28,279 nt of DNA from Chlamydiota bacterium (GCA_050257615.1 JBLMXE010000103.1:1-28279), one strand, 5' to 3'; shown: positions 133 through 27,102, counted from the stretch's first letter. Notes: a model not told the origin generated them from the letters alone. A program made the numbers and translations.

Positions 133-3100
133 ATGAAGTCTCGTCGTATACCCGCGTTTCTCCTCGCGGTCTGCGCGTGCTTCGGTTCTCGCTGCGCACA
201 GGCAGCCGCCTCCCAGCAAACAAAAGCGCCACCATCTGAAGCGGTGACGACCACCATCCCGGGTCCGCTGTACTCCTTCCTTCGTATGGCGGCGATCAGC
301 CGGCAGGTTCCGCCGGAAGACGTGCTGCCTCTTCTGGCACGCAATGTGGTCACCCATGGCTATGAGGGATGGCAGGATAGGCCCGGCTCGCCAACCGAAT
401 TTCTGGTGCTGTTGAGCCGCTATGTGCAACAGGCACGGGAGTTGACGAAACTGGCGGGCGCCGAGGGCGTCATTCGCGTTGCCAATTGCGAGCAAGCGAC
501 ACCCCTGCTGCGCATCCTCGGTTATCGTTTCCGCCAAGGTTGTGGCAGCGCACTGGCAGCCGCCAATCCCGACAGGGCATTCCTCACCATTGATGCAGGT
601 TTCCCGCTGGTGGATTTGGAAACCGATCTCCATGACCGCAAACCTTTCATATACCCATTTCACGGTTTTTCCGTACCGGTGCTGTTTCGCGAGAGCGACT
701 GGACGTCACTGCGACAAATCAGGGGGAACACCGTCCTTGACGCCCTGCTGGAGGATCCAGCATTGGCGCGCCTTTACGTGGCGCTTTCTCACCTCGATCC
801 CGAAACTCGACTTGCTTTGAAGCAATCTCCCGGATTAAGCAAGCTGGTTGGGGTTTCGCCCGCGCTCGACTTCTATGGAACTCAAATTGCGATCCGTTCT
901 GGCCAGGTTGTGGTGCCGGGAGGAACCGCGGCGGACTCGGCCTGGAAGGATCTGGTGGGCGCAAGTCCGGCCTCCCCAAGCCAATTCATACTGCACCTAT
1001 TGAGCAAGGACCAGGGCTGGCTGGCGGCCTACTTCGATTCGTTGTCGCGTACCAGTCGTGAACGGCAAGCATACTTCGCCGAGCCGCACCGGTTGGCGCG
1101 CTTCTATCACGCGCTGCGCGGGCGCGATCCATTTCCTGACGCCTACAAACGGGCATTCCGTCCCAACCCGGGTTTGTTGCTCCTGGTGACTCGCCTTCGC
1201 CTGGGGCCGGACGGAGAGCCCCAGGTCCCTGGCAACCTGGAAGTATGGAAAGAGATTTTTCGCCAGAAAAGCGATTCCAAGATCATCCGCAAACTGGGGA
1301 AACAGGCTCATACTTGGAAAACTCCGGACCAACTGGTGGAAGCGCTGTTCGGAGCTACCCGGGCGGGAACGGAGACTGGGCCCCTGCAAATCTACCTCTC
1401 AATAAGCGAACTGGATGCTGAGCGTTCCCCGGCAGGCCGCCTGGCGCCGCAAACCGTGCGCCTGCTGGCCGATAAGTTCGCAAAGTTCAGAGATCAATAT
1501 CTGATTTTTTCCGAGTTTCCGGATCTGAATAATGCTTCGATCGTTCGCTTTCTGACTATTGCGGACGGCCTCGATCGGATTTCCGATCCCACCCTGCGCG
1601 GCAACGCCATGGGAATTTTTCAAAGCAATGTTGGACTTTGGCAGATTCTGGCTCGCCAGGGGCAGATTCCCAGGACGTTGCTGAACCAGTCGTGGCGGCA
1701 GGTTACCGCCCCATTTGCCAGGATTACCTCTGCTGCCCAGCTCTTCGATGCCGGGCGCGGCTCATTGCGAGAATTGATGAAGGCCGCGACGGGGAAATCC
1801 AGCTGTTCGCAGGATGAAATCGTCGAGTTACTGGCTGGCCCTCAGCAGCCCAGTCCCGAGGCCCGCCAGGTACACGAGGAGCTGGCCAAGAAACTTCGCT
1901 CGGACCTGAACGGTCAGCGGCTGGTTTCCCTGGACACGATCCTGGCGTTGGGGGAGCAACTAGATGCCGCGGCAAAGACCAGGAGCACGGCTCCAGTGGA
2001 AATTCCTCTGGCCGGAGAGCTGCAGGAGTTCGAGATGCCGAGACCTATTTTCAGTCGCGGCGAGAGAACGGAATGGGCCACAGGAGTCTATAACAACCGT
2101 CACACCGATTTAGAGATGCGTACGGACTTGGCCAAATTGATGAAATCCCATCCCTCGTCCAGACGATTGATCAAGGCTCGTGGCGAGCTTACACCATTCC
2201 TGCGCGACGCTCTGGTGGGGTTTAATTATGCCTATTATGAACCACCAGGCTCTCAGATTCTCCGCACCAATCCTCTTTTCGTCCGCTCCCATGACTTCGC
2301 CGGGGAAACGCTGGCGGGAATGACTTCCATGTGGCAAGCCCCGCAGTTGCTTGGAGTTGGCTACCCCGCCGGCGGAGGCGCTCATTTGGTGGGTTCGCTT
2401 GCCTACCTTCCCTATGTGCTGGCAGAGGCCGAGGAGGACTTCATCGCGCCCAAAAATGTTCAGGCGCTTATCTGGAAGGAGATGGCGGCCGTCCTCTTAA
2501 CTGACGCGACCCTGTCGCGGTGGTGGAACGTGGGCCGGAACGAGCTCCACGCCGTGGCGCTTTACCAGCAAGCCGGCGAGGAGCTTCTGGCTGCTTCAGA
2601 AAAAGACGGGCGGTTGAGAGATAAAGTGATCGCCATCCTCGGAGATCGCATGACGCCGGCGAGGCTGGGGCGAGTGGAAGCGGCTCTGCAAACGGGAGGC
2701 CTCGCCAAGGCAGAGGCGGAGATCATGCCGGCAGATACCTTCTTTCTGGAGGCTGAGTTTCGCCAAGGGTTTCCTGAGGAGAGCAATTCTTCCGGACCTG
2801 CAGGGAAGGAATTGCAGGTGCTTGCCAGCCGGCACCCTGCAGAGGTCAATTGGAAACGACTGTCCCGAGACTTCGGTGTGCCACACCCCATGCTGGCGCA
2901 AACTTATGCGCGCGAGTTGCTGAATGTGCAGCCGTTCCCCGCCTGCGAGGGATACGGCAGCGCTTTGCTGGCGGAGTCCTGGGAATCGAACTATCTTTAC
3001 TGGGCCCGAGTGGCAGACGCGGCGGGCTATTCACCCGTGATGCTCAACGAATTGGTTCCGGAACTTACCCGACGCATGGTGGAAGAAATCTTTGCTACCG

Positions 3101-3243
3101 ATACGGAAGATTGGCCGGCATTGCTTCGGGCACTGCGCCAAACAGGAGAAGAATTGCGCGCCGGAAAACTTGCGGTGCTGCCTCCGAAGCATTCGATTCT
3201 GCGGGCGGCGGATTCGCCAGGCACGAAAAAGAATCCGGATTAG
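133..3243 (+). CDS. large secreted hypothetical protein (1036 aa)
   Basis: Long ORF with an N-terminal signal-peptide-like segment (MKSRRIPAFLLAVCACFGSRCAQA). No catalytic motif recognised. Followed after 34 nt by the VWA gene. Confidence 0.85.
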   Translation: MKSRRIPAFLLAVCACFGSRCAQAAASQQTKAPPSEAVTTTIPGPLYSFLRMAAISRQVPPEDVLPLLARNVVTHGYEGWQDRPGSPTEFLVLLSRYVQQARELTKLAGAEGVIRVANCEQATPLLRILGYRFRQGCGSALAAANPDRAFLTIDAGFPLVDLETDLHDRKPFIYPFHGFSVPVLFRESDWTSLRQIRGNTVLDALLEDPALARLYVALSHLDPETRLALKQSPGLSKLVGVSPALDFYGTQIAIRSGQVVVPGGTAADSAWKDLVGASPASPSQFILHLLSKDQGWLAAYFDSLSRTSRERQAYFAEPHRLARFYHALRGRDPFPDAYKRAFRPNPGLLLLVTRLRLGPDGEPQVPGNLEVWKEIFRQKSDSKIIRKLGKQAHTWKTPDQLVEALFGATRAGTETGPLQIYLSISELDAERSPAGRLAPQTVRLLADKFAKFRDQYLIFSEFPDLNNASIVRFLTIADGLDRISDPTLRGNAMGIFQSNVGLWQILARQGQIPRTLLNQSWRQVTAPFARITSAAQLFDAGRGSLRELMKAATGKSSCSQDEIVELLAGPQQPSPEARQVHEELAKKLRSDLNGQRLVSLDTILALGEQLDAAAKTRSTAPVEIPLAGELQEFEMPRPIFSRGERTEWATGVYNNRHTDLEMRTDLAKLMKSHPSSRRLIKARGELTPFLRDALVGFNYAYYEPPGSQILRTNPLFVRSHDFAGETLAGMTSMWQAPQLLGVGYPAGGGAHLVGSLAYLPYVLAEAEEDFIAPKNVQALIWKEMAAVLLTDATLSRWWNVGRNELHAVALYQQAGEELLAASEKDGRLRDKVIAILGDRMTPARLGRVEAALQTGGLAKAEAEIMPADTFFLEAEFRQGFPEESNSSGPAGKELQVLASRHPAEVNWKRLSRDFGVPHPMLAQTYARELLNVQPFPACEGYGSALLAESWESNYLYWARVADAAGYSPVMLNELVPELTRRMVEEIFATDTEDWPALLRALRQTGEELRAGKLAVLPPKHSILRAADSPGTKKNPD

Positions 3244-3277
3244 CGTCCGTGTGGGGTTTGGAATTGCAGAGGTTTCC

Positions 3278-4351
3278 ATGATGAAACGCTGTCTTCTCCC
3301 CTTGGCATTGCTCGCAGCATTTATGGTGTGTCCCGGGGCCGGAACTGTGGCCCAGGAAGGCGAGTCGCGAATTTTCGTCGTCGTGGACATGGTGCAATTG
3401 AATGTGGCGGTGACGGACAACAAGGGCAATTACGTAACCGGGCTGCAACCGAAGGATTTTGCGGTTTCGGAAGATGGCATTTCGGAACGAATTGCCACTT
3501 TCGGAGAGGGCAACGAGCCTACTCGCCCGCTGTTGCAGGTGGCCGGTGATAACGCCCCCCCGCAAGGTGATGCATTGCGGGGTTCGCACCGGGGTGGAGA
3601 TTCGGAGAATCCACCAGAAACCTTCGCTTCAGCCATAGCCGGGGCCAACGTTTTCATCCTGTTCGACACCAGCAATTATATGTACCGGCATTTTGTGTTC
3701 GCGCAGGACGCCATTGCCGATTTTATCCGCACTTTGGAATCCGCCAACAAAATAGCTTTCTATTCCTACAGCCGTGATCTGCTGCGAGCCACTCCTCTCA
3801 CACCCGATCGTTCGCAGGTCTTGCGTGGCGTGCGCTCGACCGTGGCGGGGGATGACGCCGCGCTTTACAACGCTTTATTGCTGACGGTGAAGGATGCGGC
3901 CCAGCAAACCGGACGCAAGGTGGTGGTTGTGTTTTCCAACGGGCCGGATAATGCCAGCACGGTGCCGCCGGAGGATGTGGCGGAGCTTGGCCAATCGAGC
4001 GGGGTTTCCATCTACATGATAAGTACTCAGCAAGCCCAGCTGGATCCCATTTCCACCGCGGTGTTTTCGCGGATGACCGCGGCAACCGGCGGGAAAGCGT
4101 ACTTTACCAGGAACTGGAACGATCAGGAAAAAGCGTTCGCTTCGATTCGCGATGATCTGGCCCACTTGTATTCGATCAGCTACTACCCTCAACCGAATCC
4201 CAATCGGGGCTGGCGTACTATTTCGGTGAAATTGGTCGGTAAGCAACTCAAGAAGTATCACGTGCGCACGCGAAATGGATACCGGCCCCAGCCGGTGCGA
4301 TCCTCCGCGGGCAATGTCTCGGTTTCTCGCCCCCAGTCTGTCCCTCAGTAG
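3278..4351 (+). CDS. VWA-domain protein (acidobacterial VWFA-related type), secreted
   Basis: Start reassigned to ATG 3278 (GAGG upstream; signal peptide MMKRCLLPLALLAAFMVCPGAG). Has VVDMVQLNVAVTDNKGNYVTGLQPKDFAVSEDG, ILFDTSNY, RKVVVVFSNGPDN and a C-terminal YSISYYP..WRTISVKL..VRTRNGY typical of this family. Confidence 0.85.
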   Translation: MMKRCLLPLALLAAFMVCPGAGTVAQEGESRIFVVVDMVQLNVAVTDNKGNYVTGLQPKDFAVSEDGISERIATFGEGNEPTRPLLQVAGDNAPPQGDALRGSHRGGDSENPPETFASAIAGANVFILFDTSNYMYRHFVFAQDAIADFIRTLESANKIAFYSYSRDLLRATPLTPDRSQVLRGVRSTVAGDDAALYNALLLTVKDAAQQTGRKVVVVFSNGPDNASTVPPEDVAELGQSSGVSIYMISTQQAQLDPISTAVFSRMTAATGGKAYFTRNWNDQEKAFASIRDDLAHLYSISYYPQPNPNRGWRTISVKLVGKQLKKYHVRTRNGYRPQPVRSSAGNVSVSRPQSVPQ

Positions 4352-7658: not shown

Positions 7659-7810
7659 GGTTGATTTCCTAGACTGGAATTTCCCAGCATCTTTTGGCCT
7701 TGGGAATATACAACATACAAGGGAAGGGAACCAGTGCAGCTACACGGGTGTACTCGGTGGACGCAGCCTTAGGCAGTCCTTTTCCGTGTGGAATATCGCT
7801 TAGCCGAGCA

Positions 7811-20971: not shown

Positions 20972-21298
20972 ATGAAGGATGTGTACGAGGTTCTACGCCA
21001 GAAGGAGCGCGAAGCCGAGCGCGTCCGCCAGGAAATCCTGGCGCTTCGCTTGGCCACCCCCCTGCTGGCCGACACGCCCGCTCCTGCAACAGGGCCATCC
21101 GCCGCACCGGCGCCACCAAGCGGCGAGCAAGTCGGGCAATGGAAAGAGGCGCTTCGTGTTGCTGCTCCGCTGCTCGCGGACCCAGAGGATGATCTGATCT
21201 CCACCTTGCGGGCCCGGACAGGAACTGAAGCGGCAAAGGGAAAGTGGAAACCTTCTCTCGCCCTGAAGCTGATCGGATTTTCTCCCTTCCGGCCCTGA
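20972..21298 (+). CDS. small hypothetical protein with an N-terminal coiled coil and an internal repeat
   Basis: MKDVYEVLRQKEREAERVRQEILALRLATPLLAD...EALRVAAPLLAD. Lies behind a clear promoter. Confidence 0.7.
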   Translation: MKDVYEVLRQKEREAERVRQEILALRLATPLLADTPAPATGPSAAPAPPSGEQVGQWKEALRVAAPLLADPEDDLISTLRARTGTEAAKGKWKPSLALKLIGFSPFRP

Positions 21299-21320
21299 GT
21301 ACGATCCAGGCCGGTGTTCC

Positions 21321-21352
21321 GAAAAAGAAAAAGCCGCGCGCAAGTCAACGGC
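21321..21352 (-). terminator. possible intrinsic terminator of the sulfur operon
   Basis: Minus strand GCCGT...GCGGC short stem followed by TTTTTCTTTTTC. The stem is weak. Confidence 0.4.
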
Positions 21353-21367: not shown

Positions 21368-22030
21368 CTACGAACAGCCGCCGCCCAGGCGCAGCTTCTT
21401 CTCCGGCTTTTTTCCCTGCGGCGGTTGCTGGCTGGCGGGCAGAGGCGGAGGCGCAACCTGCGGCGCTGCGGTTCCCGCGGTCGCCGGCGCCACTCCGCTG
21501 AAGTAGGCGCGCAGCTGCCTGGCCTGCTGGTAGCCGGCCGGCGACTCGGTTGCAGAGCGCAGGCTGGTGGGCGTCATCACGTTCTCCCACCAGGCCGAGA
21601 TCCCTTCCCGCAGCGAGTAAGCCTTGTAACCTTTGAGGCTGAGCAGAAGCTGTGTCTGGGCGGCATGGCCGGCCCCCAGCCCGTATACCACCACCTTCTT
21701 TTCCCGCGAGAGCTTCTTGAGGTCGTCTGCCTGGAACAGCTGCGGCAGAGGCATGTTCACAGCCGTAGGAATATGATAGTCGTCGAATTGCCAGGGCTGG
21801 CGGATATCAATCAGCTGGTAATCCTGGCGTTTCTCCATGATCCAGCGCGCCAGTTCCAGTGGAGTCACGTGATCTTTCTCTTCCGCCATGTTCTGCGCCA
21901 CGGCCGCAGCATCCATGGGGAGCGCAGCGGTGCCGTGGGCAATGGTGGTCAGCAGCGCGATCAGGAGCCCAAGAAAAACGGCCGCAATGGCGGCCAGACG
22001 CTTTCCCGTCAGAACAAACTCTCGTCTCAT
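21368..22030 (-). CDS. membrane-anchored rhodanese-fold protein with a C-terminal GGGCS tail
   Basis: N-terminal hydrophobic helix and rhodanese motifs (LIDIRQPWQFDDYHIPTAVN; KKVVVY; SLREGISAW). Pro/Ala-rich linker, ends KKLRLGGGCS. ATGA overlap with the upstream gene and AGGAG RBS. Confidence 0.88.
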   Translation of the reverse strand: MRREFVLTGKRLAAIAAVFLGLLIALLTTIAHGTAALPMDAAAVAQNMAEEKDHVTPLELARWIMEKRQDYQLIDIRQPWQFDDYHIPTAVNMPLPQLFQADDLKKLSREKKVVVYGLGAGHAAQTQLLLSLKGYKAYSLREGISAWWENVMTPTSLRSATESPAGYQQARQLRAYFSGVAPATAGTAAPQVAPPPLPASQQPPQGKKPEKKLRLGGGCS

Positions 22031-22647
22031 GGCATCTCCTTCCTGACGAGTTTGCCATAAGTCCGGCCATATGAATCCCAGGAAGTTTCGCAGCGCTCGC
22101 CTGCCCAGAAGGCTCCCAGGGCTATGACTACGATGGCCAGCACCACCAGTCCCACGTTTAAGTCGAGCCAGAGGGGCAGCGTCAAAGCGCCCATGGAACC
22201 GGAGACATTAAACCGGCTGAAATTCGGCAGCTCCGCCCCAAACACAAAGATTCCCAGAAAGATCCCGACAATAAAGAAGAGCGCGTCCAGCTTGCCGATG
22301 GCGGCCGCCACCATCGAAGTGCCGGGACAATATCCGCCCACGATGAACCCGCTGCCCAGCAGCAGCCCGCCCACAATCTGCGGCCACAGAAAGGTCGGCG
22401 GCACATAGACCTGGCTCATGTCCAGCCAGCCCGCCACACCCAAATACGCAAGGCCCAGCATGGCTACCACGATGGCGGTGAACATCACCTTCAATACGGC
22501 GAAGTCTTTCAGATAGAACTGAGCCGTCAATTTACGCGCGCTGGAGAAGCCGGCCCGCTCCAGGAAAAAGCCGAAGAAGAATCCCAGCCCCACCGACACC
22601 ACCAGGTAGGTTGCCGTCGAAAAGGAAGCAGCGTAGGGAGCATTCAT
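22027..22647 (-). CDS. YeeE/YedE-family (TsuA-like) sulfur-compound transporter half
   Basis: LGFFFGFFLERAGF, LKVMFTAI, GGLLLGSGFIVGGYCPGTS signature. ATG 22647 has a GGAGG RBS and overlaps the upstream TGA (ATGA). Confidence 0.9.
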   Translation of the reverse strand: MNAPYAASFSTATYLVVSVGLGFFFGFFLERAGFSSARKLTAQFYLKDFAVLKVMFTAIVVAMLGLAYLGVAGWLDMSQVYVPPTFLWPQIVGGLLLGSGFIVGGYCPGTSMVAAAIGKLDALFFIVGIFLGIFVFGAELPNFSRFNVSGSMGALTLPLWLDLNVGLVVLAIVVIALGAFWAGERCETSWDSYGRTYGKLVRKEMP

Positions 22648-24035
22648 AGCCAAAACCTCCGCAGGAAGTAAGCGCCCGCAAAGCCGGCGGCAAACACACT
22701 GAGCATGAAAGCGAAGGCGCCCACGGAGAGCACCGCGCCTCCGGAGAGCGCCAGCCCGCTGGTGCAGCCGCGGGCCAGGCGCGCGCCCAGTCCGGTCAGG
22801 ATGCCCCCGCCCAGCGCCAGCGCATAACGGGTGGTGGCGCTGATGCGCGGTCCCTTGTCCACCGCCAAACGCGTGCGGTGCGCCAGCCAGCCGGAAACGA
22901 AGCCGCCCAGGGCCGCGCCGATTAACTCGAATACCAGAAAGTCAATCAGGGGCGACTGGCCGGGCTGAAGGTAATTGCTCCAGTAGGCGTTCGAGTTCGC
23001 ATAGCCTGGCGCGATCCAGGAGAGGAAGGCAACCAGGTAGCGGGTGAACCCGCCCGAGGCGCCCAGGCCCTGTCCCATAATCACAAAGGTGAGCAGCAGC
23101 GTGACGCCCAGCCCAAATCCGGCGGCATAGGGCGGCCAGTATCCCGGCTGGCGAAACACGCGCGTCAGCAAGCCCGGAGCTGCCGGCGCTGCTCCCCTCG
23201 TTTCCTCAGGAACTGCAGTTTCCGGCATCGCGGCCCTGGCCACGACCGTGCCGTTGGCCTGCGCCAGTTCCTCTTCAATCCCTTGTTCCCACTCCGCTTC
23301 GCGCATCTTCATCTCCCTCCACCATTTGAAGTGATGGCGGTAGGCGTACAGTTCATTGACCGTTCCGGTAATCATGGAGAAGAAGGCCGGTTTCTCCTCA
23401 GGGAAAACCGCGCCCATGTACACGTGAATCATCAAGCCCGAGACCACCATGCCCACCGCCACGAAGTGGAGCACTACGGCAAAACCGACTACCGTGGTGC
23501 TGATCAGGTGGAAGCTCATGACCAGACCCGTGGCCATAATCAGCGGAATCATGGCATAGACCATAAGGGCGAACATCTTCTGGCCGGCGTTGTAGACGCC
23601 CTGAGGTGGCAGATGTTCTTGTGTACGCCGCAGCAGCCGCAGGGTGCGGATTTTGAGCCACCGAAAATCGTCGCGGTCCAGGCCAATTTCCCGTTGCAGA
23701 ACTTGTTTCGCCAGGTAGGTGCGGAAGCCAAAGGTCCCGTACACCAGGAAAACCGCGATCCATACCAGGCCGACGGTGATGTGGAAGCGCAGCATGTCGG
23801 CGCGCGTGCCGAAGAAGCCCTGGATCAGGTTGATATACCAGTAAGGCACAATGCGGAAGTGCGGCGAGGAGATGAGGGCTGTCCCCGTCGCCAGCTCCGC
23901 CAGCCACACGGTGGCATTGAACCAGTGCAGCAGCATGATGGCCACATGGTGCTTCTTGATTTGCCGCTGCGCCATGGCTTCCGCTTGCTGCCCGCTGAGG
24001 GCAACCGGCTTCATCGGCAAATTGCTGGTGACCAT
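22644..24035 (-). CDS. fusion of an FdnI/PhsC-type di-haem cytochrome b and a YeeE/YedE transporter half
   Basis: N-terminal part: LLHWFNA, FHITVG, PPQGVYNAGQK, VLHF-x-MIHVYM with His residues 14 apart, SMITGTV..AYRHH..W. Then a charged and Pro/Ala linker. From residue ~299: YWPPYAAGFGLG, GLGASG, GGFVSG, GARLARGCTSGLALSGG. Single uninterrupted frame with a GAGGAGG RBS. Confidence 0.9.
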   Translation of the reverse strand: MVTSNLPMKPVALSGQQAEAMAQRQIKKHHVAIMLLHWFNATVWLAELATGTALISSPHFRIVPYWYINLIQGFFGTRADMLRFHITVGLVWIAVFLVYGTFGFRTYLAKQVLQREIGLDRDDFRWLKIRTLRLLRRTQEHLPPQGVYNAGQKMFALMVYAMIPLIMATGLVMSFHLISTTVVGFAVVLHFVAVGMVVSGLMIHVYMGAVFPEEKPAFFSMITGTVNELYAYRHHFKWWREMKMREAEWEQGIEEELAQANGTVVARAAMPETAVPEETRGAAPAAPGLLTRVFRQPGYWPPYAAGFGLGVTLLLTFVIMGQGLGASGGFTRYLVAFLSWIAPGYANSNAYWSNYLQPGQSPLIDFLVFELIGAALGGFVSGWLAHRTRLAVDKGPRISATTRYALALGGGILTGLGARLARGCTSGLALSGGAVLSVGAFAFMLSVFAAGFAGAYFLRRFWL

Positions 24036-24044
24036 GGCTCCTCC

Positions 24045-24779
24045 TCAGTCCTCAAAATCCTTTTCCCCGGTTTTCAGCTGACGGAAAAATGCGATCGCCT
24101 GGCCCAGGAAGGTGGCTCCCACCGCAGCCAGCACCAGTGGCTTCAAAAACCGGTCCCACATAGCGCCAGCTGCCAGCAGCGTGGGTTTGTGCGGCGGAAA
24201 CGTGGCCAGCACCAGGTCCACATGTTCCTGCTTGCCCAGGTAGTACACATTCGGGCCGATGGCGACGTCCGAGGTTTCCAGGCGGCGCGCGCCCTCCTCA
24301 TACACCATCCGGAACACATCGCTGCTGGAGTCTTCCAGGTTGCCGAAAAACTTGGCATGCGCGGTACAAGTTGTGACGCAGATGGGAAGCTGTCCGCGTT
24401 CCAGGCGCGCCGAACAGAAATCACACTTATCCACCTTGTTGATGGCTGGGTTGAGATAGCGGGCGCCGTATGGACAGGCGTCCACGCAGTAGCCGCAGCC
24501 AATGCACAGGGTGTGGTCCACCTTCACAATTCCGCTCGCTTCATCCTGGTAAGTGGCCCCGGTCGGGCAGGGCGCGATGCACGCTGGCCGGTCGCAGTGG
24601 TTGCACTGCGCCACGTAGAAAGTGGAGAGCAAACGGGGAAAAGTTCCGGCAATGCCGGTGAAGCGGATGTGGGTGCGCGCGTAGCCTGCCGGTACCTCCC
24701 ACTCCGAGTTGCAGGCCACGGTGCAGGCCTGGCAGCCCACGCACTTCCTCAAATCCACGACCATGGCGTAACGTGGCAT
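24045..24779 (-). CDS. psrB: 4x[4Fe-4S] electron-transfer subunit (PsrB/PhsB/NrfC family) with a C-terminal membrane helix
   Basis: CVGCQACTVAC, CNHCDRPACIAPCP, CIGCGYCVDACP, KCDFC..CVTTC. Hydrophobic tail PLVLAAVGATFLGQAIAFF. Confidence 0.9.
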   Translation of the reverse strand: MPRYAMVVDLRKCVGCQACTVACNSEWEVPAGYARTHIRFTGIAGTFPRLLSTFYVAQCNHCDRPACIAPCPTGATYQDEASGIVKVDHTLCIGCGYCVDACPYGARYLNPAINKVDKCDFCSARLERGQLPICVTTCTAHAKFFGNLEDSSSDVFRMVYEEGARRLETSDVAIGPNVYYLGKQEHVDLVLATFPPHKPTLLAAGAMWDRFLKPLVLAAVGATFLGQAIAFFRQLKTGEKDFED

Positions 24780-24797
24780 TGTCCAACCTCAACCCGG

Positions 24798-27005
24798 CTA
24801 AGTGCTCTCCTTCAGCACGCGCACAAAGTTCACCCGCATGCCGGTGCCGCCCATCAGGGGATCAATGTTCACCCGCGTCATCAGTTCGGTATCAGAAGCG
24901 CCGCGGTGGTAGGCACGGCGCAGCTTGCGCGATTCGTGGCCGAAGCCGTGAACCATATAGACGCAGTCGCGCCGAATCCCGGGCGTGACCCGCACTTCCA
25001 CCGGCAAGCTGGTGGCGCCGTCCTGATTCTGCAATGTCACACGGTCGTCGTCTTCCAGGCGCAGGTCGCGGGCCGCGTCGGCGTTGATCCACACCGCGTT
25101 CTCCGCCATCAGCGCGTCCAGCACCTTATTGTTCTGGCTGCGCGCAAAAGAGTGCACTGGCGCCCGCCCATAGATCAGCCGGAAATATCCCAGGGGAGGA
25201 TCGGTCACCGGGGTGTAGCGCGGCATGGGATCGGCCCCCAGTTGCTTCAAAGTGGAGGAATAGAGCTCGATCTTGCCGCTGGGCGTGGCAAACAGCGGCC
25301 CATCGGCGGGCGTGCGGTCTTCTATGTAGGGATGGCCGGGAAAAGCTAAGGCCCCGCGCACCGCCAGCGTCCTCATATTCACGTCCAGGGGGCCTACCAG
25401 GGTTTGCAGATGCTCTTCCGGAGTCTTCCAGGGGAACCAGGCCTGCAACCCAAGTCGTTGCGCCATCTGCTGCGCGATCCACCAGCCCGGCTTGGATTCG
25501 TAAAGCGGGTCCACCACCGGCTGCCGTACCGACACAAACGGCTGCTTGGCGCTCTCCGCCATCATGGGCGCGTCATAGCGCTCCAGGTAGGTGGCTTCGG
25601 GCAGCACCAGGTCGGCGTAGTTGGCCTGTTCCATGGGCATCACGTCCACCACCGCCATGAATTCAAGCTTCTCGATCGCTTGCAGCGTTCGCTGCCGCTG
25701 CGGAATACTCTCCAGAACGTTCTGTCCGTAAACCACCCAGGCTTTGATGGGATAAGGTTTGCCGGTGAGCGTGGCCTCCACCAGGCCGTTGGTGACTCCC
25801 TGTTCTTCGGAGGCGAGAGGATAGGTGGTGCCGGCGCCATCAGCCCGGCCTAGTTGTGATTCTGGAAACGGCGGCAGGGCGAACTTACCCTTCTTCAGCG
25901 GCGTAGGAAGGAAGATGCCGCCCTTGCGCCCCCAGCTTCCGGTCAGCGCGGTCAGAATGGCCATGGCGCGCTCGCGTTGCGTGTCGTCGCCATACCAGGT
26001 GGCATGCCGCCCCGGGTGCAGCGCCACTGCCGGCTTGGCCTGCGCCATGGCGCGCGCCGTTTCCCGAATCTGCGGCGCGGGAATTTCCGTAATCGGCTCC
26101 GCCCACTCGGGGGTGAATTCGCGCACGTAGGAGGCAAGCTCGCTGAATCCAGTTGCGTATTTCGTGATGTATTCGCGGTCGTAACCTCCTTCCGCGATCA
26201 AAACGTTCATCCACGCCAGCAGCAGCGCGATGTCGGTTCCCGGGCGGACGGGCAGCCACCAGTCCGCCTTGGCGGCCGCCGTGGAAAACCGCGGATCAAC
26301 CACGATCAGTTTCGCGCCCCGCGCCAGACCTTCGGCAAACGCGGTCACCTGGGAAGTGAAAATGTTTTCCCCGATGTGCGAGCCGATCAGCACCATCAGC
26401 TTGGCTTCTTCCAGGTCCACCGGCTCGGGCGAACCCAGGCCATGCCCGAAGGTCAGCGCATAGCCGACCTCACGCGGCCCCCGGCATTGTGCGAACGCAG
26501 GCTCGGCGGCGTTGGGCGTGCCGTAGGCCTTCATCAGGGTGGCGAAAAATCCCGAAGCGACGCCGTGAGGGAAGAAAGCCACGCTCTCCGGGCCATATTT
26601 CTTTTTCAGATCAGAAAGGCGCTGGGCGAAGAAGTCGAGCGCCTGCTCCCAGGTGATCCGCCGGAAACTGCCTTCGCCGCGCGCACCCGCGCGCAGTTGC
26701 GGATATTTCAGGCGGTCGGGATCATAGAGCAGGGAGGCGCCGGCATTGCCGCGGGCGCACAGCCGTCCCCGGGTCAGCGGATGGTCGGGGTTGCCTTCCA
26801 GCTTGACCACCTTCCCGTCCGCCACTTCCGCGATCACGCCGCAGCGCCAGAAGCACATTTCGCAGTTGGTGGCGATCTGCTCGGTACGGCGCGTGCCGCT
26901 CCAGCCCGGTGGGTGGTTCTGGGCAGTGGCCGCTTCCGCCACCAGTCCGGCCCCGGCGAGCGAAGAAAGCTTGAAAAAATCCCTGCGGCTCAGCTTGTCG
27001 TTCAT
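24798..27005 (-). CDS. psrA: polysulfide/thiosulfate reductase-type molybdopterin (bis-MGD) catalytic subunit, Tat-exported
   Basis: SRRDFFK Tat motif, CEMCFWRC..LCARG FS0 cluster, PESVAFFPHG, and PNAAEPAFAQCRGPR (Cys Mo-ligand position as in PsrA). Also VDPRFSTAAAKADWWLPVRPGTD, DLVLPEATYLER, ATPSGKIELYS. Substrate (polysulfide, thiosulfate or other) cannot be fixed by eye. Confidence 0.88.
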   Translation of the reverse strand: MNDKLSRRDFFKLSSLAGAGLVAEAATAQNHPPGWSGTRRTEQIATNCEMCFWRCGVIAEVADGKVVKLEGNPDHPLTRGRLCARGNAGASLLYDPDRLKYPQLRAGARGEGSFRRITWEQALDFFAQRLSDLKKKYGPESVAFFPHGVASGFFATLMKAYGTPNAAEPAFAQCRGPREVGYALTFGHGLGSPEPVDLEEAKLMVLIGSHIGENIFTSQVTAFAEGLARGAKLIVVDPRFSTAAAKADWWLPVRPGTDIALLLAWMNVLIAEGGYDREYITKYATGFSELASYVREFTPEWAEPITEIPAPQIRETARAMAQAKPAVALHPGRHATWYGDDTQRERAMAILTALTGSWGRKGGIFLPTPLKKGKFALPPFPESQLGRADGAGTTYPLASEEQGVTNGLVEATLTGKPYPIKAWVVYGQNVLESIPQRQRTLQAIEKLEFMAVVDVMPMEQANYADLVLPEATYLERYDAPMMAESAKQPFVSVRQPVVDPLYESKPGWWIAQQMAQRLGLQAWFPWKTPEEHLQTLVGPLDVNMRTLAVRGALAFPGHPYIEDRTPADGPLFATPSGKIELYSSTLKQLGADPMPRYTPVTDPPLGYFRLIYGRAPVHSFARSQNNKVLDALMAENAVWINADAARDLRLEDDDRVTLQNQDGATSLPVEVRVTPGIRRDCVYMVHGFGHESRKLRRAYHRGASDTELMTRVNIDPLMGGTGMRVNFVRVLKEST

Positions 27006-27086: not shown

Positions 27087-27102
27087 TGTGACAGAGATCA
27101 CG
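27087..27102. promoter_or_regulatory. CRP/FNR-family-type binding site upstream of psrA
   Basis: TGTGA-CAGAGA-TCACG is a 9/10 match to TGTGA-N6-TCACA, about 80 nt upstream of the psrA start. Confidence 0.6.

Follow-up and report, generated by a model that had tools for sequence, protein, structure and literature searches.

A respiratory Psr/Phs-type operon fused to a split YeeE channel, and a possible persulfide relay through its cysteine-tipped arm

Why would a quinone-linked molybdoenzyme carry half of a sulfur channel on its membrane anchor? The question is raised by a 28,279-nucleotide stretch of DNA from Chlamydiota bacterium (GCA_050257615.1, JBLMXE010000103.1:1-28279; hereafter the window, meaning the whole stretch that was analysed), in which five minus-strand open reading frames (ORFs) spanning 27005..21368 encode, in this order, the catalytic subunit PsrA, the iron-sulfur (FeS) subunit PsrB, a cytochrome b fused to one half of a YeeE-type channel (cytb::yeeE), the other YeeE half, and a rhodanese-fold protein with a cysteine-tipped tail (gene 5, the arm protein). 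Our tentative answer, to which we give a probability of about 45%, is that the operon encodes a quinone-linked Psr/Phs enzyme with a covalent persulfide relay, the net effect of which would be import of zero-valent sulfur into the cytoplasm. An earlier sequence-only reading of the window had proposed the five-gene order, with gaps of 18 and 9 nt followed by two ATGA overlaps, and it was exact in each of these points: read directly, the psrA/psrB junction is TAG, 18 nt and ATG, the junction of psrB with the third gene is TGA, 9 nt (ggaggagcc, which contains GGAGG) and ATG, and the ATGA overlaps lie at 22647-22644 (third gene/gene 4) and 22030-22027 (gene 4/gene 5). The genes and their parts are as follows.

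24798-27005, minus strand: psrA, catalytic subunit exported by twin-arginine translocation (Tat) and carrying a molybdenum bis-molybdopterin guanine dinucleotide (Mo-bisMGD) cofactor, 735 residues (Pfam Molybdop_Fe4S4, Molybdopterin and Molydop_binding)
24045-24779, minus strand: psrB, four-cluster FeS subunit, 244 residues with 16 cysteines (Pfam Fer4_11)
22644-24035, minus strand: cytb::yeeE fusion gene (Pfam Ni_hydr_CYTB at residues 30-224 and Sulf_transp at residues 229-451)
23286..24035, minus strand: cytochrome b domain of the FdnI/PhsC type, fusion residues 1-250 (PF01292, alignment to FdnI)
23151..23285, minus strand: poorly conserved linker of ~45 residues leading from the cytochrome b to the channel half (alignment A1)
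22644..23150, minus strand: YeeE C-terminal-type half, PmpA-like, corresponding to helices H8-H13 of Spirochaeta thermophila YeeE (profile A3)
22027..22647, minus strand: gene 4, YeeE N-terminal-type half with an H7-like helix, PmpB-like, 206 residues from the ATG (Pfam Sulf_transp, profile A4)
21368..22030, minus strand: gene 5, arm protein, 220 residues (Pfam Rhodanese, E = 7e-16)

What kind of enzyme stands at the head of the operon can be read from its catalytic subunit. PsrA carries an RRDFF twin-arginine motif at residue 7, an FS0 cluster motif (C-x2-C-x3-C-x27-C) from residue 48 and a cysteine, Cys174, that aligns with the molybdenum-ligand cysteine of Thermus thermophilus PsrA. Over its full length it matches that protein (2VPW_A) with 746 bits (E = 4e-223), against 221 bits for the next family in the PDB, and its best NCBIfam model is PhsA (the equivalog NF012032; 530 bits versus 269 for the next), at a score that, unlike that of a PhsA equivalog, stays below the cut-off of 694 bits. 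With its Tat signal, FS0 cysteine motif, molybdenum-ligand cysteine and closest relatives among the Psr/Phs catalytic subunits, the protein belongs to the PsrA/PhsA/SrrA lineage; its position relative to PhsA, SrrA and Wolinella PsrA is drawn from score comparison and the literature. The sequence-only reading had called the enzyme Psr/Phs-type and had named a non-sulfur clade as the finding that would speak against it, and the nearest characterised relatives are indeed Thermus PsrA and the PhsA model. PsrA, PhsA, SrrA and archaeal SreA are inseparable by phylogeny, and a sequence within this lineage does not reveal its substrate (PMC10100899), for which reason we name none.

The electron-transfer subunits give the complex a different anchor from that of Thermus Psr. 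Residues 1-182 of PsrB match the 195-residue Thermus PsrB (166 bits), and PsrABC of T. thermophilus (2VPW), whose molybdenum ligand is kept, holds the closest solved relatives of both PsrA and PsrB; beyond this region PsrB has a C-terminal extension of 60 residues, the hydrophobic helix of which, from residue 212, aligns with the membrane anchor of FdnH (1KQF_B 99-274). The N-terminal domain of the fusion protein is of the PhsC/FdnI cytochrome b556 type: His37, His85, His190 and His204 do not vary in a set of 11 diverse homologues, the last two correspond to the predicted haem-binding pair's counterparts in FdnI, the ligands His155 and His169, and a conserved YNAGQK motif at residue 148 is one that in FdnI lines the cytoplasm-side quinone site. 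The anchor is thus a PF01292 (Ni_hydr_CYTB) protein with four conserved histidines and not a haem-free, eight-helix PsrC of the NrfD type. Because it is an FdnI/PhsC-type di-haem cytochrome b, the predicted electron path is of the Phs/Fdn-N kind, combined with Psr-like A and B subunits. In its periplasmic Tat-exported molybdenum subunit, four-cluster FeS subunit, di-haem cytochrome b, YNAGQK motif and FdnH-like helix the operon resembles PhsABC of Salmonella and Fdn-N of Escherichia coli; unlike in those systems, which have neither arm nor channel, the cytochrome b here continues into a YeeE half. The segment preceding the linker aligns with the cytoplasmic C-terminal helix of FdnI, and the linker itself would be cytoplasmic.

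Beyond the linker, profile A3 of the fused half matches S. thermophila YeeE (6LEO/8J4C) over residues 238-329, and its invariant RGCTSG falls on the Cys293 motif. Cys424 (codon 22766-22764), invariant in A1 and A3, is the equivalent of YeeE Cys293 at the periplasmic mouth, and GCTSG is present in 120 of 122 fusion homologues. Gene 4 matches the remainder of the channel: profile A4 aligns with 6LEO residues 3-184 (H1-H7), with GGYCPG falling on Cys91 and a serine at the Cys22 position, the motif GGYCPGT is invariant in alignment A4, and its Cys107 (codon 22329-22327, here TGT) is the equivalent of YeeE Cys91. In the YeeE structure Cys293 lies at a periplasmic indentation and Cys22 and Cys91 lie toward the cytoplasm, the equivalent cysteines are ~7 Å apart and able to form a disulfide, and the N-terminus is outside and the C-terminus inside, with H7 reversing the topology between the halves (PMC7449682). 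Since the FdnI-like domain ends in a segment aligned with a cytoplasmic C-terminal helix, the fused half must start in the cytoplasm; an H8-H13 half that starts there, together with an H1-H7 half that runs from outside to inside, makes the permuted gene order fit the membrane topology.

Together the two genes form a split YeeE of the PmpAB/YedE1E2 kind, with two half-size Sulf_transp units in adjacent genes, the C-half first, and one conserved cysteine in each, equivalent to Cys293 and Cys91; the PmpA/PmpB pair analysed by Li et al. corresponds to the two halves in the window (PMC11582611). Unlike PmpAB/YedE1E2, SoxT and TsuA, the channel here has a respiratory cytochrome b joined to its C-half and an additional H7-like helix in its N-half. 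TsuA/YeeE itself is one chain of ~330 residues with nine transmembrane helices, three conserved cysteines (22, 91 and 293) and a TusA-like TsuB/YeeD partner; the channel here is encoded by two genes that score 25 and 23 bits with the NCBIfam TsuA model against a cut-off of 400, it lacks the third cysteine (Cys22 is serine) and has in some members selenocysteine (Sec) at the Cys91 position, and no TusA/YeeD partner was found for it. Among the relatives, YedE1E2, a split YeeE, takes up extracellular zero-valent sulfur and raises intracellular glutathione persulfide (GSSH) (PMC10812762), and SoxT, which offers a further likeness in that it is proposed to receive sulfur from the C-terminal cysteine arm of SoxY, imports SoxY-bound sulfur by a route for which a relay via the channel cysteines has been called conceivable (PMC11582611). 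The absence of a YeeD/TusA partner, which the sequence-only reading had pointed out for the window, extends to its genome, as PF01206 was found neither in the window nor in that genome (75% complete). As a separate observation, the five Acidobacteriota genomes G000 and G046-G049 may lack TusA, an otherwise common sulfur carrier.

Could gene 5 deliver sulfur to such a channel? Its product has a membrane helix at residues 9-30 with basic residues before it, a rhodanese fold at ~50-155 that was modelled confidently (predicted local distance difference test, pLDDT, above 90; Foldseek template-modelling score, TM, up to 0.84), and a Pro/Ala-rich tail at 181-220, ~40 residues predicted to be disordered and without secondary structure, that ends in GGGCS. 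The fold is that of the rhodanese sulfurtransferases Sud, GlpE and PspE, with the catalytic cysteine replaced by Gly117; the sole cysteine of the protein is Cys219 (codon 21376-21374), in GGGCS. Among 27 gene-5 proteins from all lineages (alignment A5) the terminal Gly-Cys residues are the only invariant columns, and the catalytic position is never a cysteine. The 120 closest database homologues all end in G-x-G-C-S/T; exactly one cysteine is present in 118 of them and glycine at the catalytic position in 115, the other five being unmatched by the motif search. The sulfur-carrier role that had been given to gene 5 from the sequence is strengthened by these results, with the terminal Gly-Cys and not the rhodanese fold as the carrier feature.

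Comparison across phyla points the same way. The arm protein of Calditrichota, Melioribacteraceae and locus L012 has 83-107 residues, in which a membrane helix leads by way of a linker to an ...EEEGC end, with no rhodanese domain; that of Ignavibacteriales is a Cys-less rhodanese ending in ...REGC; and in L085 and L088 an additional helix connects the arm to the C-terminal end of gene 4, and the GGGGC-x ending is kept. By these alignments the rhodanese domain is dispensable, the conserved feature being the C-terminal Gly-Cys on a disordered tail. In Aminicenantes the arm is replaced by a signal-peptide rhodanese with a canonical CKSGGR active site, which suggests that the tail cysteine takes on the task of the rhodanese cysteine. 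SoxY (GGCGG-COOH) and DsrC (penultimate cysteine) likewise end in a flexible peptide whose cysteine is flanked by glycine, and in them this arm cysteine takes the covalently bound sulfur substrate into the active sites of enzymes. The likeness to a SoxY-type carrier is confined to that glycine-flanked terminal cysteine (GGGCS, GxGCS or EGC here): a Pfam scan of the window proteins found no SoxY or SoxZ domain, there is no relation in sequence or fold (a rhodanese fold or no domain, versus the immunoglobulin-like SoxY or the DsrC fold), and the arm is membrane-anchored and in some phyla part of the catalytic subunit. Another parallel is Psr of Wolinella succinogenes, which is served by the Cys-bound sulfur carrier Sud; unlike in PsrABC with Sud, the anchor is not of the haem-free NrfD type, and the carrier is membrane-tethered and bears its cysteine on a terminal tail instead of a rhodanese loop.

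A similar end occurs on the enzyme itself. PsrA has a C-terminal tail of 45-60 residues in Calditrichota, Ignavibacteriales, Aminicenantes and one Myxococcota lineage, ending in EEEGC, I-[RKQ]-EGC, EEGGC or SEGC and resembling the end of the arm protein of the same lineage (such EGC/GGC ends are encoded at the psrA 3' ends of L012, L034-L039, L089, L079, L081, L087 and L091-L095). It is missing in the window, in Terriglobia and in all PsrAs of operons that lack the channel. That the catalytic subunit itself can bear a Cys-tipped tail speaks for a meeting of the arm cysteine with the molybdenum site.

We then asked how often these parts occur together. In a protein search space of 5.8 billion the fusion protein returned 879 relatives, of which the best 120 (64-90% identity) all carry both Pfam domains, under existing annotations such as 'formate dehydrogenase gamma subunit', 'cytochrome b/b6 domain' and 'YeeE/YedE family'; clustering at 50% leaves about seven full-length fusion clusters. 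A locus scan using one genome per species and two motifs, both within the cytochrome b part, gave at least 519 relatives, and the best 80 of these at least 519 species-level loci, searched by tblastn with the five window proteins, supply the cassette counts. About 45 of the 80 have the order psrA-psrB-cytb::yeeE-yeeE and come from Terriglobia/Bryobacterales, Calditrichota, Ignavibacteriota/Melioribacteraceae, Aminicenantes, Myxococcota and Acidimicrobiaceae (Actinomycetota). The other ~35, all from Acidobacteriota, consist of psrA-psrB-cytb only, with PsrAs 61-73% identical to that of the window, and the arm gene is not downstream of these channel-less operons, with the exception of L066. Flanking genes vary from locus to locus (the families among 135 flanking ORFs include 5 ArsR-type helix-turn-helix proteins, 4 MerR and 3 MobA). 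With the fusion in at least 120 clusters and unrelated flanks, the arrangement is, as judged from these sequences, far beyond chance, and the gene order, the non-recurrence of which had been named as a reason to give up the idea, recurs across several phyla.

In L066 (Terriglobales, positions 1777-3395) an unfused cytochrome b gene is followed directly by the arm protein gene, whose product ends in KLGKGCS, with no YeeE between; the contig stops ~100 nt past the arm gene, and the channel genes may be situated past its end or absent altogether.

The distribution is that of an accessory cassette, since a search of 12 genomes from the genus of the window yielded no homologue; the fusion occurs in only 2 of 400 evenly sampled Acidobacteriota, the window's genome aside. 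In a maximum-likelihood tree of PsrA (59 rows, rooted at the midpoint only) all lineages outside the Acidobacteriota clade are channel-linked, and the channel-less operons fall inside that clade (100/100 support) as two groups, each well supported and 11 rows in size; the simplest history would be that channel and arm were lost at least twice. Other loci tie the enzyme to YeeE by different means. One Calditrichaceae contig has a second cluster (L034:4874-9500) with PsrA, PsrB, an NrfD-type PsrC of 317 residues, the only NrfD-type anchor found, and then unfused YeeE halves; in L044 the YeeE halves lie just upstream of an operon with unfused cytochrome b. These arrangements point to a Psr-YeeE association that is independent of the fusion. 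The interaction between reductase and YeeE parts that the sequence-only reading had claimed therefore stands in part: every member has one half covalently joined to its cytochrome b, YeeE genes lie beside operons with unfused or NrfD-type anchors, and to that extent only is it shown. A second unfused YeeE pair occurs at L091:1-1529, with a Cys-less rhodanese ending in KEGC.

The exchange of a channel cysteine for Sec in some relatives bears on the chemistry. In 10 loci, 8 from Acidobacteriota (L011, L017 at 7776-7778, L018, L019, L021, L022, L033 and L040) and 2 from Calditrichaceae (L034 and L035), the codon for channel Cys107 is TGA, the sole in-frame stop, and the frame continues unchanged. 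All 10 share a GGUGGC-GGUC-GCCAUC hairpin 16 nt downstream of the TGA, which single-sequence folding recovers with z-scores that are not significant; at gathering thresholds Rfam found no selenocysteine insertion sequence (SECIS) family in these loci, its one match being a fluoride riboswitch in L019. A selA gene scores above cut-off in 4 of 5 TGA-type genomes. The loci look like selenoprotein forms of the split-YeeE half, with a SECIS-like reading suggested by the conserved hairpin, and the exchange of Cys for Sec at this position points to nucleophilic or redox chemistry there. The Sec-containing YeeE/YedE family of selenoproteome surveys has its motif, GUxSG, on the other loop (PMC13188914). 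Gene callers split the TGA forms into two ORFs of ~106 and 96 residues. In the window, whose gene is of the TGT type, a related and stronger hairpin, CGAUGGUGGC-GGC-CGCCAUCG, lies at 22270-22340 on the minus strand (z = -2.4 versus shuffles); it may be left over from an ancestor with Sec or may simply reflect coding constraint. The riboswitch in L019, a Terriglobia metagenome-assembled genome (MAG), is RF01734 (10141-10201, 41 bits) and lies ~1.5 kb downstream of the cassette.

How might these parts work as one? Starting from the observed gene content, fusion, conserved ligands and cysteines, fit to topology, co-occurrence and Sec/Cys exchange, we infer the persulfide chemistry, the physical docking, the direction and the substrate. 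The five gene products would form a single membrane complex, with PsrA and PsrB in the periplasm, seated on the di-haem cytochrome b with its cytoplasm-facing quinone site. The cytoplasmic C-terminus of the cytochrome b would run into one channel half and gene 4 would provide the other; fusion of one half to the anchor would keep the channel beside the enzyme in fixed stoichiometry. Gene 5 would provide a periplasmic swinging arm, tethered to the membrane and working through its single terminal cysteine. Sulfane sulfur would be exchanged as a covalent persulfide between PsrA, at its molybdenum site, and the cysteine of the arm, and would pass from there to Cys424 and then to Cys107 (Sec in some relatives) and on to a cytoplasmic acceptor other than TusA, with two electrons moving between PsrA and the quinone pool via the FeS clusters and haems. 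The arm might be loaded by oxidation of sulfide, which would conserve energy through an Fdn-type redox loop, or from polysulfide or thiosulfate. The transfer of electrons from sulfide to menaquinone is thermodynamically downhill. By analogy with Sud-Psr, SoxY-SoxT, DsrC and YedE1E2, such a relay would be the simplest mechanism that uses the enzyme, the fused channel, the channel-linked arms and the Cys/Sec residues. We lean towards import because YedE1E2 and SoxT import, because zero-valent sulfur needs carriers and because an Fdn-type loop conserves energy on oxidation. The broader proposal of the sequence-only reading, that quinone-linked sulfur redox chemistry is coupled to sulfur translocation or hand-off, we regard as supported, given the clade of PsrA and the recurrence of the gene order. 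We are more doubtful of a bolder form of the relay, a transmembrane covalent 'sulfur wire' in which an energy-conserving sulfide:quinone oxidoreductase would keep the sulfur atom on protein thiols or selenols and hand zero-valent sulfur straight to the cytoplasm.

Several points weigh against the relay. The TsuA authors prefer hydrogen-bonded over covalent passage of thiosulfate (PMC7449682), and close relatives encoded by three genes function with neither arm nor channel, which makes those parts accessory. A Pfam search revealed no constant sixth gene, and hence no acceptor candidate, among the 135 flanking ORFs from 29 loci, and the TusA family, which might have filled the role, was found in none of the 5 module genomes (G000 and G046-G049) compared to 10 of 14 controls. 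All carriers are uncultured MAGs, and the module is known from genes alone. A complex prediction for channel halves A3 and A4 with arm A5 scored 0.17, below the mark of 0.32; we list it here and weighed it neither way. Finally, every characterised PsrA, PhsA, SrrA or archaeal SreA enzyme is a reductase (PMC10100899), and the lean towards oxidation and import thus draws only on energetics and on the behaviour of other YeeE-family proteins. The same fact speaks for a purely reductive Phs-type enzyme, acting on polysulfide, elemental sulfur, thiosulfate or tetrathionate with quinol oxidised at the cytoplasmic face and with help from the membrane potential. The Cys-tipped arms would then be built-in equivalents of Wolinella Sud, capturing external sulfane sulfur for PsrA, and the channel would be secondary, serving, for example, assimilatory sulfur import or the passage of cytoplasmic sulfane sulfur outward for reduction. 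The PhsC/FdnI-type anchor, as found in thiosulfate reductase, agrees with this, as do the usually anaerobic sediment lineages of many carriers (Calditrichota, Ignavibacteriota and Aminicenantes), the CRP/FNR-type dyad upstream of the operon (described below) and the canonical, Sud-like periplasmic rhodanese of Aminicenantes. We nevertheless hold it to be unlikely: the arm gene tracks the channel and not the enzyme, being missing in the ~35 channel-less operons despite their similar PsrAs, a sulfide product needs no channel, and the sole characterised split YeeE imports zero-valent sulfur.

Alternatively, the channel might move reducing equivalents instead of sulfur, its Cys and Cys/Sec residues alternating, in the manner of CcdA, DsbD and SoxV, between a dithiol and a disulfide (or selenosulfide) state, and so keep the arm cysteine reduced and active. 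SoxV/SoxS is needed for reactivating the SoxY arm in the Sox system. Each half has one invariant cysteine on a re-entrant loop, at positions whose YeeE equivalents are close enough for a disulfide (PMC7449682), Sec replaces one of the two in some members, and the gene 5 rhodanese resembles TsoB, a rhodanese/DsbD-fusion-like selenoprotein (E = 3e-6). We judge such a role improbable, as no YeeE-family member is known for electron transfer, those tested moving thiosulfate, sulfane sulfur or selenium, and no conserved thioredoxin-like partner lies nearby. Least probable to us, with only a slim chance of being right, is a selenium system in which an Srr-like selenite reductase would place Se(0) on the cysteine arm for uptake via a YedE-type selenium channel. 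SrrA is inseparable from PsrA/PhsA by phylogeny, the presence of rhodanese genes next to srrA is taken to mark selenite reducers (PMC8528874) and a rhodanese-domain neighbour is present here, some relatives are themselves selenoproteins, and the best NCBIfam matches of both channel halves, weakly, are YedE selenium-transporter models. These YedE scores are, however, far under the cut-offs (31 bits versus 350 and 35 versus 200), the rhodanese is catalytically dead by sequence, and no selA was seen in module genome G048. A selenium link via enrichment of selA was rejected, since the gene is present in 8 of 10 module genomes and in 296 of 401 sampled Acidobacteriota.

The surroundings of the operon include two further features in the window.

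27087..27102, minus strand: CRP/FNR-family-type dyad CGTGA-N6-TCACA, 97 nt upstream of the psrA ATG
21321..21352, minus strand: short GC stem followed by a T-rich run (TTTTTCTTTTT), 3' of the last stop, not called by a consensus terminator scan

The dyad confirms the CRP-type site that had been placed before psrA, at the level of a family label only. By pattern search, 5 further Terriglobia loci (L019, L021, L022, L023 and L033) have dyads of this kind, GTGA-N6-TCAC, between -62 and -115, against a background rate of 7% of 300-nt windows. For the terminator proposed just upstream of the operon, a GC-rich hairpin does follow the stop of the upstream gene (27238-27210); its T-tail is poor and the consensus scan does not call it. 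The operon probably ends, to judge from the sequence there, at the GC stem and T-rich run, although a consensus promoter and terminator scan of the operon interior and both ends revealed nothing convincing. In soil metagenome run X4 one contig swaps 50 nt just past the last stop (window 21294-21345) for 16 other letters, a difference between strains within what is putatively the terminator.

Soil metagenomes from ~10 studies contain near-identical DNA. A sediment metatranscriptome (X18) yielded short contigs only, 93-99% identical and covering parts of psrA, cytochrome b and gene 5, and these are too weak to claim transcription of the operon. A strict link to dissimilatory sulfite reduction was rejected, as dsrA scores above cut-off in only 1 of 5 module genomes. 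Contig C10 of genome G047 has two dsrA matches of equal score (33973-36170 and 46412-48609), each with a dsrB-like neighbour and 12.4 kb apart, which are either a true duplication or an assembly repeat. Downstream of the cassette in a Bryobacteraceae MAG (L008:10697-17386) lie genes encoding TauE (sulfite exporter family), DUF1634, a MerR regulator, an ATP sulfurylase and an FeS protein with a CCG domain; this setting, one of sulfur oxidation or sulfite handling, was seen in none of the other loci.

Each single component of the cassette has known relatives, and the sequence-only reading had doubted that the whole had been characterised. The literature search agrees with it, having found no description of the architecture as a whole, of a respiratory cytochrome b fused to a YeeE half, of a Gly-Cys arm, whether encoded by a gene of its own or carried as a tail by PsrA, or of a Sec variant at the YeeE Cys91 position. 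The annotations 'rhodanese' and 'formate dehydrogenase gamma subunit' thus hide a distinct sulfur-handling module, which is present in Acidobacteriota of soil, peat and sediment and in several further phyla, and matters when cryptic sulfur cycling is read from metagenomes. The cassette bears on how periplasmic sulfane sulfur reaches the cytoplasm and on how YeeE-family proteins pass sulfur, by hydrogen-bonded ion passage or by covalent hand-over along cysteines. For that question it is a natural test system, in which a periplasmic redox enzyme, a one-cysteine arm and a two-cysteine channel, the last kept in fixed stoichiometry by the gene fusion, come together with natural Cys-to-Sec variants at one channel position. 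The sulfur wire, if true, would be the first direct case of a covalent persulfide relay through a YeeE-family channel.

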